Sequence record: MZ065353.1
From: Escherichia virus KFS-EC3
Strand: one strand, 5' to 3'
Length of the DNA: 64,000 nt
Shown: piece after piece, positions 51,373-55,648 of the stretch
Numbering within the stretch: position 1 is the stretch's first letter
Layout of the letters: every line of letters starts with the position of its first letter
Made by a program: the position numbers and the translations under genes
Notes under the pieces: generated by a model
The model's input: the letters and a program-made list of their open reading frames with translations, nothing else
Told to the model about the DNA's origin: nothing
Database searches by the model: none

Positions 51373-51593
51373 TGAAAAGCATTGATGATGCTTTTAATTA
51401 TGAAGAAGAATTTGAAACGGAAATTCAATTCTTAATGAAAAAGTATAATCTCAAGCGTCAGGATATTCGTATCCTGGCTGACCATCCATGCGGTGAAGAT
51501 GTACTTTATATTAAAGGAAAATTTGCCGGATATCTTGATGAATATTTTTATTCTAAAGATATGGGCATTGATATGCATATGAGAGTTATATAA
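51372..51593 (+). CDS. hypothetical protein (uvsY.-1 position)
   Basis: 73-aa ORF, ATG overlaps uvsY stop. Confidence 0.6.
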   Translation: MKSIDDAFNYEEEFETEIQFLMKKYNLKRQDIRILADHPCGEDVLYIKGKFAGYLDEYFYSKDMGIDMHMRVI

Positions 51594-51621
51594 ATAGATA
51601 TATAATTTAGAGGAGACAATC

Positions 51622-51789
51622 ATGTCAGATAAGATTTGTGTTGTCTGTAAAACTCCAATCGATTCTGCATTGGTTGTTGAAACAGACAAAGGTCCTGTAC
51701 ATCCTGGGCCTTGTTATAATTACATTAAAGAACTACCAGTTTCAGAAAGTTCGGAAGAACAATTAAATGAAACACAACTTTTGCTATAG
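51622..51789 (+). CDS. small Cys-containing protein (55 aa; uvsY.-2 position)
   Basis: AGGAGA RBS; CVVC ... PGPC suggests a zinc ribbon; below ORF-track threshold. Confidence 0.45.
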   Translation: MSDKICVVCKTPIDSALVVETDKGPVHPGPCYNYIKELPVSESSEEQLNETQLLL

Positions 51790-51812
51790 TGTGACCTTTA
51801 GTCTATAGTTTT

Positions 51813-51842
51813 GGCCCTTCCTTTTTGGTTGGGCCTTTTTTA
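51813..51842 (+). terminator. intrinsic terminator ending the uvsY operon
   Basis: GGCCC ... GGGCC stem followed by TTTTTT. Confidence 0.6.
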
Positions 51843-51844
51843 AT

Positions 51845-52075
51845 TTAAAAGCTTTCTTCTACTTCATCGTCTGAATCTTCTAATTCAGCTCTTTTTCCTG
51901 CCAAAGCATCTCTCACAGAGATGTCATCAGTATCTTTTAATTCAGTTTCTTTAACTCTTTTCTTATAATAAGCTTCAAGTTCTTCTAGACCTTCTAATGT
52001 TTGGCAAGAGGCAATTTTACCCATAAATTCATCAATAGAAGCTTCATAAAGAAATTGTTTAAATTCTAGTAACAT
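51845..52075 (-). CDS. uvsW.1: UvsW.1
   Basis: 76 aa from the ATG with GGAG RBS (T4 UvsW.1 is 76 aa); track start 52087 is a TTG extension. Confidence 0.7.
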   Translation of the reverse strand: MLLEFKQFLYEASIDEFMGKIASCQTLEGLEELEAYYKKRVKETELKDTDDISVRDALAGKRAELEDSDDEVEESF

Positions 52076-52087
52076 CTTTTTCTCCAA

Positions 52088-52099
52088 AGGGCCGAAGCC
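52088..52099 (-). other. C(UUCG)G tetraloop hairpin between HNH gene and uvsW.1
   Basis: GGGC-UUCG-GCCC on minus strand just upstream of the uvsW.1 RBS. Confidence 0.5.
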
Positions 52100-52100
52100 C

Positions 52101-52793
52101 TTATAAATTAACTGTTTTTCTAAGTATTCTTAGTTTGTACATTGATAATCCAGTAGCTTTAGAAGCATCTTTCATACATTTATACTTAACACCATTTACT
52201 TCTATAGGTTTAGCAGCTGGGTTATTAGCTCCTGAATTATCTGGCATATTATCTTTAATTTTCTGAATAGATTTAGCGGAATGTTTCCTTCCATACATGC
52301 CATTATTTTTACCTGATTGATTGATAGAATGCAATCTTTTAGCTTCTTCAGTCCATTTTGTTGGGTTCATTCTTTTAGTTTTACTAATTTTACTTCCCCA
52401 TGTAATTGGACGATTTTTCATGAGTTTTGACATATATTGTTTATGTTCTTCCGTATGGTGTTTTCCGTAAAATGGATTACCTTCACCTGATTGAAGTTCT
52501 GCCATTTTACGACGTTCCCAGGCGTAAGATTTATTAACGTGTCTTTCATGAGTCTTTGAATTCATCCCCATACATATAACGGCTTTAATTATACCGTAAT
52601 GGTTTGGATGAATTTTAGCTAAAAGTTTATGAGCTATAAAATGCTCTTCAGCTGTTAGTTCTACCAAATTACACTTATCATCTGTACCGCCCATACATCT
52701 AGGAATTATATGATGAGTTTCAGTGTATCCATTAAGGCGAGCCCGATTCTGGGCTCTATTAATTAAATTATCGTATATTAATTTATAATTCAA
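52101..52793 (-). CDS. HNH homing endonuclease (free-standing) with TTG start
   Basis: 230 aa; HHIIPRCMGG ... NLVELTAEEHFIAHK HNH motif; repeated G-x-N-x-x-Y/F-G-K/R motifs; start codon TTG overlaps uvsW stop with AAGAGG SD upstream. Confidence 0.85.
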   Translation of the reverse strand: MNYKLIYDNLINRAQNRARLNGYTETHHIIPRCMGGTDDKCNLVELTAEEHFIAHKLLAKIHPNHYGIIKAVICMGMNSKTHERHVNKSYAWERRKMAELQSGEGNPFYGKHHTEEHKQYMSKLMKNRPITWGSKISKTKRMNPTKWTEEAKRLHSINQSGKNNGMYGRKHSAKSIQKIKDNMPDNSGANNPAAKPIEVNGVKYKCMKDASKATGLSMYKLRILRKTVNL

Positions 52794-54298
52794 AGTTTAA
52801 CCTCTTTCATCACATAATTAAACTTCTCATCAGCATAACGCTGAATACGATCAAGTCCATGTTTTAAAAGATAGTTTAAATGCGAGTATTTTTTAGAAGA
52901 TGTTTTTGATTTAGAAACTACGCCCGCGTCATCTATGAGGTCCCAGACCGTTGCGATTGTTTTAGAACCATGCTTACGTAATACGCGACCTATTGTTTGC
53001 AATACAATAATTTTAGATTTAACACCGTGTGCTAAAACAACGTGATGCAGATTTTTAACTGAAATGCCAGTAGAAAATACACCATAACTAGCTACTATAA
53101 TTATTCCTTTACCGTTTTCAGCTAAGGTTTTCATTATATTGCGGGTTTCGGTATCAACTTCCCCTGATACGTAATAAACTTTATCGTATTCATTTTTAAT
53201 TAAATCGAAAATAGCTTTACCATGTGATACATGCTTAAACATGACAAAAGCGTTTTCATCTTTTTGCGCAAGCTTAATAGCTAATTTAGCGATCCATTTA
53301 TTTCTTTTACTGAGTCCAGTAATAATTTTTATTTCTTCTTGGTAAGTTTTTCCCTTTAATTTAGTAGTGAACTCATCGGGATAGCGAAGAAAAATACTAT
53401 TAATTTTTAACTCAGTTACTTGTCCATCTTCCATTAATTTAGAAGTCGTTACTGGCTTAAATATTTCACCGAACATTCCAACATACTGCATGATATTAGC
53501 TTTGCCATCACGTAATGAACCAGACAAACCGAATTTGAACATGCAGTTATTTAAACCTGATATGATAGATGAAATACTTTTTCCTGTGGCAAGATGGCAT
53601 TCATCATTCATCATCATTCCAAACTGTGAGAACCATTCTTTCGGTTGTTTTACTACAGTTTGCCATGTACCAACAACGACTGGTGCATCATTTTTATATT
53701 TATCATCTTTTGATGCTCCACCGCCGATTTTCTTTATCATTGCATGACTGAATAAACGATAGTCAACAAAGTCATCAGCCATCTGAGTTGTCAGAGCAGT
53801 TGTTGGAACAATGATAAGAATTTTACCTTCATAATTTTCCAAATAATAACGTGCAAGCAAAGCTTGAATTAAGGATTTACCTGCAGATGTTGGAAGATTA
53901 AGAATTCTACGACGATTAACTAATCCTTCGAACACTGCATCTTTTTGATACCAATGCGGTTCAATTCTTTTATTTCCTGAATAGATTTCTAATTTAGAAA
54001 GCCATTCATCAAAATCTTTTCTTGATAATTCTTCTTTTTCGTTAATCTGTGGGTCAATCCAGGCTTTATAGCCAAAGTTATCACAGAACTTTTTAATTTG
54101 CCCGACTAAGCCGAATGGAAGAAGACGATTATAATCTAAAAGACGGATTCGTCCATCCCAGTTGCCATATCTGAAGCGAGGATTAAACCTATATCCATCG
54201 GCCTCAAACGAAAAGAAATCTCTTAATTCGTGGAACGTGCTCTCTTCACAATCGATGCGTACATGACTGAAGTCGTGAAAATGTACTTTAATATCCAT
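52790..54298 (-). CDS. uvsW: UvsW DNA/RNA helicase
   Basis: 502 aa; Walker A PTSAGKS and DECH box. Confidence 0.95.
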   Translation of the reverse strand: MDIKVHFHDFSHVRIDCEESTFHELRDFFSFEADGYRFNPRFRYGNWDGRIRLLDYNRLLPFGLVGQIKKFCDNFGYKAWIDPQINEKEELSRKDFDEWLSKLEIYSGNKRIEPHWYQKDAVFEGLVNRRRILNLPTSAGKSLIQALLARYYLENYEGKILIIVPTTALTTQMADDFVDYRLFSHAMIKKIGGGASKDDKYKNDAPVVVGTWQTVVKQPKEWFSQFGMMMNDECHLATGKSISSIISGLNNCMFKFGLSGSLRDGKANIMQYVGMFGEIFKPVTTSKLMEDGQVTELKINSIFLRYPDEFTTKLKGKTYQEEIKIITGLSKRNKWIAKLAIKLAQKDENAFVMFKHVSHGKAIFDLIKNEYDKVYYVSGEVDTETRNIMKTLAENGKGIIIVASYGVFSTGISVKNLHHVVLAHGVKSKIIVLQTIGRVLRKHGSKTIATVWDLIDDAGVVSKSKTSSKKYSHLNYLLKHGLDRIQRYADEKFNYVMKEVKL

Positions 54299-54300
54299 AA

Positions 54301-54918
54301 TTATGCCTTACTAAATTTGCCTTTAGAATCTCTTTTCATGAGACGACCTTTAATAAATCCGTCGGGAATAATACCGTCTGGTTGTATTAATTTATTTATT
54401 GCGCCATTATTGACCCAAAAAGTTCCTGTTGTAGTCGGTTTGACTTTACATCCTTTTCTGGACTTTCTATTAGGATGAACCATCCCTTTTACAAATCCTT
54501 CTGGAACAAGTTCTCCAGGCTTAATAAAAATATTTTTAGTTCCATTAGTGTAACAAGTTGTACCTAATACCGTGCCCGGTGAGTTTTCAAATCTCTTAGC
54601 GGAAGATTCTTTCATCTTTGCTATAACCTCTGTAGTCATAACAATTCCACCAATTCCACCAGGTTTCATATTATAATAATTTTTGCTTTTTATCAGTTCA
54701 GGAGTTATAATTTCTTCTTCATACATGTACGCTTCTTCGGAAGTTTTAAACTCTTTTAGTATTTTTCTAGAGAAATTGTTTTCACCATATTTCTTTATAG
54801 CCTGCTGAATTGCCTTACCGGAACCAAGGTAGCCATCATTCAGGTCGTCAGTAGAGTGCTTTCCTATATACTTTTTACCATTTATTAGATTTGTTGTTTC
54901 GTATACAAAGTGGTACAT
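54301..54918 (-). CDS. segE: GIY-YIG homing endonuclease, SegE-like
   Basis: 205 aa; N-terminal YHFVYETTNLINGKKYIGK GIY-YIG motif; position between uvsW and inh as recalled for T4 segE. Confidence 0.8.
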   Translation of the reverse strand: MYHFVYETTNLINGKKYIGKHSTDDLNDGYLGSGKAIQQAIKKYGENNFSRKILKEFKTSEEAYMYEEEIITPELIKSKNYYNMKPGGIGGIVMTTEVIAKMKESSAKRFENSPGTVLGTTCYTNGTKNIFIKPGELVPEGFVKGMVHPNRKSRKGCKVKPTTTGTFWVNNGAINKLIQPDGIIPDGFIKGRLMKRDSKGKFSKA

Positions 54919-54946
54919 ACTATTTTCCGAGTAATAAATATATCTA

Positions 54947-54954
54947 TATTTATA
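54947..54954 (-). promoter_or_regulatory. late promoter TATAAATA upstream of the Seg-like gene
   Basis: Exact TATAAATA on minus strand 29 nt before the start. Confidence 0.6.
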
Positions 54955-54967
54955 CTGAGGAAATATT

Positions 54968-55648
54968 ATGATAGATAAAGATTATATTGCAGAGCTGAAG
55001 GCTCTTGATGATAATAAAGAAGCTAAAGCTAAATTAGCTGAATATGCTGAACAGTTTGGTATAAAGGTCAAAAAGAATAAATCTTTTGATAATATCGTTA
55101 ATGATATTGAAGAAGCCCTCCAGAAGCTCGCTAGTGAACCTATGCCAGAGACTGATGGGTTATCTATTAAAGACTTAATTGATGCTGCTGATGCTGCAGA
55201 CGGATTAAAATATGACGATGAAGAAGTCAATCCAGAGGCAGCACTTCTGATTGATTCTCCGGTTAAATCTGACATTAAAATTGAAGTAGTAGAAACGGAT
55301 AAAATTCCTGAAAATACCGATGTTTTGATTGAAGATACTCCTTTTGTTGAAGAAAAATTCGAGCAGGCTGTAGCTGAGATTATTGAATCTGAAAAGCCGT
55401 CTGTATTTACTCTTCCGGAAAACTTTAGTCCGAATCTTCAGCTGATTGGAAAAAATCCAGGATTCTGCACCGTTCCTTGGTGGATTTACCAGTGGATTGC
55501 TGAAACTCCGGATTGGAAATCTCACCCAACTAGTTTTGAACACGCGTCAGCACACCAAACTTTATTTAGCTTAATTTACTACATTAATCGTGACGGATCA
55601 GTTCTAATTCGTGAAACACGTAATTCTTCTTTCGTAACATTAAAATAA
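54968..55648 (+). CDS. inh: Inh, inhibitor of prohead protease gp21
   Basis: 226 aa, acidic, position upstream of hoc. Confidence 0.8.
   Translation: MIDKDYIAELKALDDNKEAKAKLAEYAEQFGIKVKKNKSFDNIVNDIEEALQKLASEPMPETDGLSIKDLIDAADAADGLKYDDEEVNPEAALLIDSPVKSDIKIEVVETDKIPENTDVLIEDTPFVEEKFEQAVAEIIESEKPSVFTLPENFSPNLQLIGKNPGFCTVPWWIYQWIAETPDWKSHPTSFEHASAHQTLFSLIYYINRDGSVLIRETRNSSFVTLK

Follow-up and report, generated by a model that had tools for sequence, protein, structure and literature searches.

Results

A MobE-family homing endonuclease gene at the end of uvsW

The stretch analyzed here, 64,000 nucleotides of Escherichia virus KFS-EC3 (sequence record MZ065353.1; hereafter the window), carries a free-standing and probably functional homing endonuclease gene (HEG); it belongs to the T4 MobE family and is set into the final four codons of the helicase gene uvsW. 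An earlier note, made from the DNA letters and naming no strand, had claimed an HNH open reading frame (ORF) of 230 aa between uvsW and uvsW.1. This ORF is present on the minus strand, ends in a TAA at 52103-52101 and has no internal stops (Table 1). The placement was right as to the two neighboring genes and needed refinement at the left edge, which alignment with T4 and LH2 puts within uvsW itself, four codons ahead of its stop.

The HEG start, TTG (52793-52791), overlaps the uvsW stop, TGA (52792-52790), as TTGA, just as the note had read it. No start farther 5' is possible because the HEG frame has a TAA at 52799-52797, two codons 5' of the TTG. The next ATG is residue 34 (PRC-M-GG), C-terminal to the catalytic histidine pair H27/H28, so the TTG is the sole canonical start that preserves the HNH motif. 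The Shine-Dalgarno (SD) sequence AAGAGG was also found where it had been described, inside the end of uvsW, at a spacing of 7 nt rather than about 8. The TTG is kept in 10/10 aligned phages that carry the gene (carriers, defined below), and identity over the 61-nt junction is 96.7% or higher in all 48 carrier records. In position the TTG corresponds to the ATG of T4 mobE and of Klebsiella phage Roth16 and to the GTG of NM4.3 and PM2.

Table 1. Features of the uvsW-HEG-uvsW.1 region, in window coordinates.
Feature	Position	Strand	Basis or remark
MobE-like free-standing HNH homing endonuclease gene (HEG)	52793..52101	minus	230 aa, TTG start
uvsW helicase gene, 502 aa	54298..52790	minus	host gene with occupied end
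TTGA overlap of HEG start and uvsW stop	52793-52790	minus	sequence
Shine-Dalgarno AAGAGG	52806-52801	minus	7 nt 5' of HEG TTG, within insert-borne uvsW tail
uvsW.1, 76 aa from its ATG	52075..51845	minus	Pfam UvsW-1, 1.7e-30
Insert proper, 689 bp missing from HEG-less Tequatroviruses	52116..52804	minus	pairwise and multiple alignments with T4, LH2
5' uvsW-tail copy, foreign type: AAA GAG GTT AAA CTT TGA = K-E-V-K-L-stop	52790..52807	minus	
3' uvsW-tail copy, native Tequatrovirus type: AAA ACA GTT AAT TTA TAA = K-T-V-N-L-stop	52101..52118	minus	
Carrier-specific uvsW 3' tract, 109 bp, 28 fixed differences	52811..52919	minus	carrier/non-carrier alignment
Predicted HNH (His-Me finger) catalytic core, residues 27-56, HHIIPRCMGGTDDKCNLVELTAEEHFIAHK	52626..52715	minus	invariant HH-N-H-H, profile matches
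First NUMOD3 module, residues 94-122	52428..52514	minus	Pfam PF07460
Second NUMOD3 module and I-TevI-like C-terminal DNA-binding region, residues 157-216	52146..52325	minus	
GC-rich hairpin GAGCCCagaaucGGGCUC, codons 13-19, matching in position the internal terminator hairpin of T4 mobE	52739..52756	minus	no real U-tract
Sole exact TATAAATA match on the minus strand in the 51500-55600 scan	54954-54947	minus	upstream of segE

Family and domains of the HEG protein

BLASTP aligned the HEG protein to T4 MobE with 52% identity over residues 1-106 (E=5e-33), and it matched PHROG 655 (phrog_655), annotated 'homing endonuclease', at E=1.6e-61, far beyond chance. The profile search for HNH and NUMOD domains that the note had suggested found NUMOD3 (Pfam PF07460) well above its cut-off (51.8 bits vs 20.4; 7.7e-14), in two stretches, G103-K118 and G161-I179. 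For the HNH domain the signal appeared at the level of the family. Ten relatives, encoded in phage genomes or viral contigs, were aligned with the HEG protein; in this 11-member alignment residues H27, H28, N42, H51 and H55 are invariant, and the Pfam HNH model matches 8 of the 11 members (best 6e-6). The family profile also matches two HNH cores in the PDB, those of McrA (6ghc, E=1.7e-4) and Cas8f-HNH (8e-4). The HNH motif region of the HEG protein is short, and this family-level evidence compensates for the sub-threshold Pfam score that the protein obtains alone.

The C-terminal part resembles a known DNA-binding domain. Residues 157-216 matched that of I-TevI (PDB 1i3j) at E=0.006, the Pfam I-TevI_DNA-bd model matched weakly (E=0.03), and TIGR01453 covered the NUMOD3/DNA-binding part at 5e-7, with 30 bits against a cut-off of 56. 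By these matches the HEG product is an HNH homing endonuclease of the T4 MobE family with NUMOD3, and its predicted architecture is an N-terminal MobE-type HNH domain followed by two NUMOD3 modules and a helix-turn-helix-like C-terminal region.

A search of Rfam over 51500-53300 (E<=1) returned no RNA family and no group I intron, and the uvsW and uvsW.1 ORFs are complete, as expected of a free-standing gene. The Rfam result rules out an intron or intein reading. The label 'group I intron endonuclease', which some records give to the gene, is ruled out by the missing intron RNA and by the TIGR01453 score below its cut-off.

Anatomy of the insertion

Pfam identified uvsW by UvsW_N (8e-44) plus ResIII and Helicase_C, and the gene is 95-100% identical to that of T4 outside its 3' tract. 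The insert junction is ambiguous by a 4-nt GAAA microhomology. The insert starts GAG GTT AAA CTT TGA and recodes the end of UvsW from KTVNL-stop to KEVKL-stop, as seen by aligning this 5' tail with T4/LH2 (KTVNL-stop) and with PM2 (AAAGAGGTTAAATTGTGA); it is this tail that now terminates UvsW. The SD core GAGG and the TTGA overlap are accordingly sequence of the insert, not native uvsW. GAGG is absent from the uvsW tails of Tequatroviruses lacking the HEG (HEG-less), which read ACAG, and present in the Bp7 and PM2 junctions. The 5' copy of the window (AAAGAGGTTAAACTTTGA) is of the foreign PM2/Bp7 type, and the 3' copy is native.

That 3' copy is identical to the uvsW end of HEG-less LH2/T4 and now supplies the HEG with its C-terminus and stop. 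The HEG protein ends ...LRKTVNL-stop, while the orthologous protein of the Klebsiella phage Roth16 ends ...LRNL-stop, with no native tail. The true HEG-less junction, taken from LH2, reads ...GTAATGAAAACAGTTAATTTATAAGGGCTTCGGCCCTTTGGAGAAAAAGATG, and in phages without the HEG, LH2 and RB27 among them, uvsW and uvsW.1 are only 25 nt apart. The uvsW.1 SD (GGAG, 52085-52082) and the UUCG hairpin upstream of it (52100-52089) are untouched by the insertion and the same as in the HEG-less junction. This hairpin, GGGCUUCGGCCC with a UUCG tetraloop (52089-52100, minus), follows the stop of the HEG (formerly that of uvsW), precedes the uvsW.1 SD and is native to HEG-less Tequatroviruses; the surrounding 81 nt folds no better than shuffles (z=-0.36).

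A search with UvsW.1 gave 75 matches, all stand-alone proteins of about 75 aa, with no UvsW-UvsW.1 fusion among them; the search reached only fairly close relatives. The idea that the uvsW/uvsW.1 split is itself the scar of an ancient HEG insertion is unsupported by these 75 matches.

Same-site relatives and origin of the start signal

Orthologs occupy the same site in five further lineages, and in every one the start overlaps the uvsW TGA (NTGA). The overlap is TTGA, with a TTG start, in Tequatrovirus (the window), Dhakavirus Bp7 and Gaprivervirus SP18; it is GTGA, with GTG, in Moonvirus NM4.3 and Bragavirus PM2, and ATGA, with ATG, in the Klebsiella Roth16 type. ATG is the start codon in T4 mobE and in each of eight more distant paralogs found in viral contigs.

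The two uvsW tails of the window are too diverged to be recognized as a direct repeat (202/300 shuffles scored as well), so duplication in the window is argued from the homology that each copy shows to uvsW tails found elsewhere. A direct repeat of 19-22 nt of the uvsW tail flanks the HEG in SP18 and PM2, with a score that 0/300 shuffles reached. The 5' copy of these repeats ends in the HEG start and the 3' copy in the uvsW.1 start. At the homologous position HEG-less JS10 reads uvsW-ATGA-uvsW.1, with the SD inside the uvsW tail. Because of the SP18/PM2 repeats and the JS10 junction, we equate the initiation region of the HEG with a duplicated initiation region of uvsW.1. The compared junctions show the HEG start signal to be a duplicate of the uvsW-tail/uvsW.1 'SD-N7-ATGA' junction, the ATG of which has decayed, or has been tuned, to TTG or GTG in most lineages.

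We had considered the 3' junction an illegitimate join at the GAAA microhomology. This was revised given the true uvsW-tail direct repeats in SP18 and PM2, which make the right-hand crossover more simply a homologous pairing between the 3' tail copy of the cassette and the uvsW tail of the recipient.

Some further features of these relatives were recorded. The Bp7 HEG (1530-2312, 260 aa) shares the site, the junction, the TTG and the HNH domain, and its C-terminal two-thirds is unrelated and has no NUMOD3. PSD2002 and ESCO10 have a Bp7-type junction but a NUMOD3-type HEG. This pattern has the look of a domain or cassette exchanged at a single site. The annotation of Bp7 uvsW is split into two parts (30-242 and 553-1533), about 310 nt apart, which suggests another interruption or a frameshift. 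The T4 nrdA/mobE junction TAAATTGTAATGAATTATCAAAAAAT resembles the PM2 uvsW/HEG junction TAAATTGTGAATTATCAAAAAAT, and both host genes end K-L-stop; this likeness could be chance in AT-rich DNA or a hint of how the HEG family finds sites.

Distribution and the linked uvsW tract

We compared positions 51800-53100 with 50,697 phage records by megablast. The flanks matched in 499 records, and the whole query was covered in 48 of these, the carriers, which include phage T6, ACG-C40, HY03 and Yersinia phage PST. All carriers have one fixed junction in common, and HEG-less junctions were read in T4, LH2, RB27, HP3, slur08 and teqskov. The note had called the gene a mobile insertion and named two findings that would speak against this: the same ORF at this site in all T4-like genomes including T4, or a frameshift or internal stop. 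The junction comparison instead gave a presence/absence polymorphism, with T4 among the phages lacking the ORF, and the ORF of the window is intact.

Over the 7 kb surrounding the site, identity to T4 is 95-100%, apart from about 200 bp of uvsW directly 5' of the insert; it resumes immediately 3' of the insert. An alignment of 11 carriers (the window included), 5 non-carriers and LH2 placed all 28 fixed carrier/non-carrier differences within 52919-52811 and none downstream of the insert. The tract recodes UvsW from ...VKPKSANTKKKYVH... to ...VVSKSKTSSKKYSH... A 136-nt probe of the divergent uvsW stretch 5' of the insert was at least 95% identical in exactly 48 records, equal to the carrier count, 90-95% identical in 4, and at most 90% identical in the rest (T4, 75%). 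Polymorphisms outside the tract are shared mosaically among carriers and non-carriers. Flanking host sequence is therefore co-inherited with the HEG on the 5' side only, and the alignments show an apparent mobile unit of about 0.8 kb, made up of the recoded 109-bp uvsW 3' tract and the 689-bp insert.

In HEG-less LH2 the alleles are of carrier type between 52919 and 52883 and of non-carrier type from 52877 on, with the crossover in a conserved island; by this pattern LH2 is a recombinant with a crossover inside the tract. The first ~40 nt of the carrier tract (52919-52883) were seen in HEG-less phages, represented by LH2 (2001-2151) and by the 4 records at 90-95% identity, and these phages are recombinants that switch between window positions 52883 and 52877. 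Such LH2-type phages may represent nuclease-resistant alleles. The recoded tract is unique among the six genera examined, whether HEG-bearing or not, and a comparison aimed at its donor found the first 81 nt no nearer to Bp7, JS10, SP18, Roth16, NM4.3 or PM2 than to T4 (54-64%). The tract may remove the target of the nuclease, or it may have hitch-hiked from an unsampled donor.

The HEG frame is uninterrupted in 10/10 aligned carriers, with dS up to 0.17 and dN/dS of 0.00-0.12 against the window. The gene is under purifying selection in carriers. In carrier BF15 the HEG, annotated there as 195 aa, is frameshifted and truncated by the loss of 4 bp (window 52325-52322); this copy is decaying. 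Intact, constrained copies together with an occasional decaying one fit the usual HEG life cycle.

Expression signals

The pattern TATAAATA, which we take to be the T4 late-promoter consensus, had its only exact match on the minus strand upstream of segE, and the scan gave no match between that site and the HEG. TATAAAT(T) at 52781-52787 (minus), in HEG codons 3-5, matches the pattern at 7/8 positions; a transcript from there would be without the TTG. A scan for sigma-70 promoters and terminators found fewer promoter-like sites than in shuffles, and none of its minus-strand results near the HEG was relevant. Because no promoter-like site lies between uvsW and the HEG, the latter is probably read from a late segE-uvsW-HEG-uvsW.1 transcript. 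T4 mobE is promoterless too; it depends on the nrdA promoters, is co-transcribed with nrdA and overlaps the nrdA stop (PMC2790892).

Among the free-standing HEGs of T4, a non-AUG start is found in mobA only, and the overlap of the mobE AUG with the nrdA stop has been taken to suggest translational coupling that limits expression (PMC2988022). The proposal of the earlier note that the HEG is coupled to and throttled by uvsW is a reasonable inference, and matches the one made for T4 mobE (PMC2988022). Folding places hairpins at about the same distance 3' of the start in the window, T6, Roth16, Bp7 and T4 mobE, with stems that differ in sequence. That of T4 mobE is an experimentally verified weak terminator (PMC2790892); the role of the HEG hairpin is uncertain because its U-tract is missing. 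Sequestration of the ribosome-binding site by RNA structure, as in I-TevI and Aeh1 mobE, is unsupported, since the folds pair the SD weakly (4 bp).

Discussion

Comparison with known systems

The closest counterpart is T4 MobE, encoded between nrdA and nrdB (Wilson & Edgell 2009, PMC2790892), which nicks nrdB of T2 (PMC2790892). Besides the related N-terminal HNH domain, the two genes share a homologous start position that overlaps the stop of the host gene (UAAUGA in mobE, UUGA in the HEG), the lack of a promoter of their own, a GC-rich hairpin at homologous 5' codons, and presence/absence polymorphism among T-even phages. They differ in site, which for the HEG is the uvsW tail and not nrdA/nrdB; in start codon, TTG with a strong SD as opposed to ATG; and in size, the HEG protein having 230 aa, two NUMOD3 modules and an I-TevI-like C-terminal region where MobE has 141 aa. 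The HEG hairpin also lacks a U-tract, and the HEG reads out through a residual host-gene tail.

Aeh1 mobE in nrdA, T4 mobA in gene 39/60 and phage 25 seg43 (PMC2988022) likewise lie inside a host coding sequence with host function preserved. Those elements split the host gene into two polypeptides, whereas the HEG displaces only the last four uvsW codons and supplies a surrogate tail, so that UvsW stays in one piece. The resemblance to I-TevI is confined to the DNA-binding domain (residues 157-216) and the NUMOD3 modules; the catalytic domain of the HEG is HNH, not GIY-YIG, and the gene is free-standing rather than intron-encoded. There is also a likeness to integrative elements that use the 3' ends of genes such as tRNA genes, in that the terminal ~16-22 nt of the host gene flank both sides and the element's copy completes the host gene. 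Unlike them, the HEG has no integrase, break-induced homologous repair being presumed, and translation of its second tail copy gives the element's own protein its C-terminal end.

Proposed mechanism and points against it

As a functional homing endonuclease gene, the HEG would be read from the late segE-uvsW transcript without a promoter of its own. Ribosomes ending at the uvsW TGA, or bound to the embedded SD, would initiate at the weak UUG and make little nuclease, and expression may be trimmed further by the 5' coding hairpin, a homolog of the mobE attenuator. During mixed infection, the enzyme would nick or cut the HEG-less uvsW/uvsW.1 region of a related phage, and recombinational repair would then copy the ~0.8-kb cassette into that phage. 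The carrier would be protected by having its own site interrupted, recoded or both.

Several observations weigh against this account. Cleavage activity, target site and super-Mendelian inheritance are inferred from MobE. On the HEG protein alone the Pfam HNH model (PF01844) stays below threshold, at 16.8 bits vs a cut-off of 21.4 (E=0.0079). The good SD (AAGAGG, 7 nt) would allow initiation independent of uvsW termination, and a hairpin without a U-tract may not terminate transcription. The recoded tract could be hitch-hiking and not immunity, as the other HEG-bearing genera keep a conserved uvsW there. Purifying selection, finally, could reflect a domesticated function.

A more elaborate form of the account is possible, and we hold it tentatively. 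It would make the element a cassette built for coupling, in which the uvsW tail and the uvsW.1 ribosome site were duplicated on entry into the uvsW-ATGA-uvsW.1 junction, the start was tuned down to UUG or GUG (5/6 genera) as an evolved throttle, and in Tequatroviruses the tract (VKPKSANTKKKYVH to VVSKSKTSSKKYSH) removes the element's own target. If true, translation would be passed from uvsW to the HEG to uvsW.1 with neither host gene harmed, and LH2-type phages would be HEG-less but immune alleles.

Alternative explanations

It is doubtful, though not far-fetched, that the TTG is used by ordinary SD-directed initiation independent of uvsW termination, with TTGA a by-product of the duplicated junction and low output due only to the weak start. 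The strong AAGAGG at optimal 7-nt spacing is what such initiation would need, and the minimum-free-energy fold leaves the SD weakly paired. Yet NTGA is kept in six genera even without a visible good SD, as in Roth16 (GAAGACTGTAAATTTATGA), and HEG-less relatives link uvsW and uvsW.1 by the same architecture. That the HEG no longer homes in Tequatroviruses, and persists, domesticated or not, as a nuclease or DNA-binding protein passed on vertically and by ordinary recombination, seems unlikely to us. Any selected function could give the low dN/dS, all sampled carriers share one left boundary of the tract, as from one ancient entry, and one copy is decaying. But carriers are scattered over mosaic backgrounds, and their flanking single-nucleotide polymorphisms are shared with non-carriers up to the edges of the cassette; the same HEG family sits at the same site in six genera; the catalytic residues are intact; and the close homolog MobE is experimentally mobile (PMC2790892).

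The remaining alternatives concern what is translated. A product begun at ATG-34 would have 197 aa and, without the first catalytic histidines, would be a DNA-binding protein and not a nuclease. Two GenBank records do annotate a shorter ORF (W143, and SP18 at a similar downstream ATG), and ATG is a stronger start codon than TTG. We consider such a product very improbable: residues 1-33 are conserved with T4 MobE at the protein level, no SD precedes ATG-34, three of the four carrier changes in codons 2-33 fall at third positions (the fourth being G22E in T6), and most annotations, including RefSeq T6, use the TTG. Hardly credible is a UvsW-HNH fusion made by programmed frameshifting, or a spliced insertion of the intron or intein type. 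The HEG frame is -1 relative to uvsW, the CUU-UGA at the uvsW end resembles the prfB shift site, and the intron label given to the gene in some records would favor splicing. A +1 shift at CUU-UGA, though, enters a frame that stops after 2 codons, and the TAA of the -1 frame two codons upstream leaves only a non-slippery ACU/CUU position; the early +1 stop, the -1 TAA and the want of a slippery site rule out the frameshift fusion. Against splicing stand the Rfam result and the fact that UvsW and UvsW.1 are complete ORFs unspliced.

Significance

Taken as a functional homing endonuclease gene, the HEG gives the T-even model system for homing endonucleases a well-resolved natural example. It would show how a selfish gene can sit undamagingly in the end of a repair helicase gene, by bringing a substitute tail and a copy of the neighboring gene's ribosome site, and how such a gene can limit its own expression, with a MobE-type 5' hairpin and a non-AUG start placed in a stop/start overlap. 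T6 has the HEG and T4 and T2-like phages lack it, so standard crosses offer a direct test of the predictions: markers around uvsW should be excluded, the target should lie in the uvsW 3' end or at the junction, and expression should be limited by the UUG.

Neighboring genes and database annotation

Directly upstream of uvsW lies segE (54301-54918, minus), a GIY-YIG homing endonuclease gene (Pfam SegE_GIY-YIG) that is 97-100% identical to its T4 counterpart. uvsW thus has a homing endonuclease gene on either side, each from a different family. W143, a carrier, is without segE, and there inh adjoins uvsW.

A literature search on this specific uvsW-site element, including T6 and mobE with Tequatrovirus, found no description of it. 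The same gene is present in GenBank and RefSeq at the same site, with a protein 95-99% identical and the TTG start in most annotations. Dozens of GenBank records already annotate it, with homing endonuclease among the labels, and it is an ordinary uncharacterised member of the MobE family. Its names include 'homing endonuclease' in T6 (YP_010067330), 'homing endonuclease MobE' in ACG-C40 and 'mobD' in Yersinia phage PST. The labels are inconsistent across records: mobD, mobE, 'group I intron endonuclease' (several Escherichia phages), 'GIY-YIG' (Nispero and Metamorpho, where the HNH gene is called 'GIY-YIG homing endonuclease'), hypothetical, and a truncated version from ATG-34.

The host gene is unevenly annotated as well. 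The Roth16 record calls uvsW (1002-2504) a 'U3 small nucleolar RNA-associated SSU processome protein 25'. The T4 RefSeq record NC_000866.4 (2678-4441) annotates uvsW as a 587-aa ORF fused with uvsW.1, and its junction, AATTTAATAA-GCTTCGG, differs from that of HEG-less LH2/RB27, AATTTATAAGGGCTTCGG. This record still contains the old T4 sequence errors that fuse uvsW and uvsW.1, which were noted by Nolan et al. 2006 (PMC1524935).

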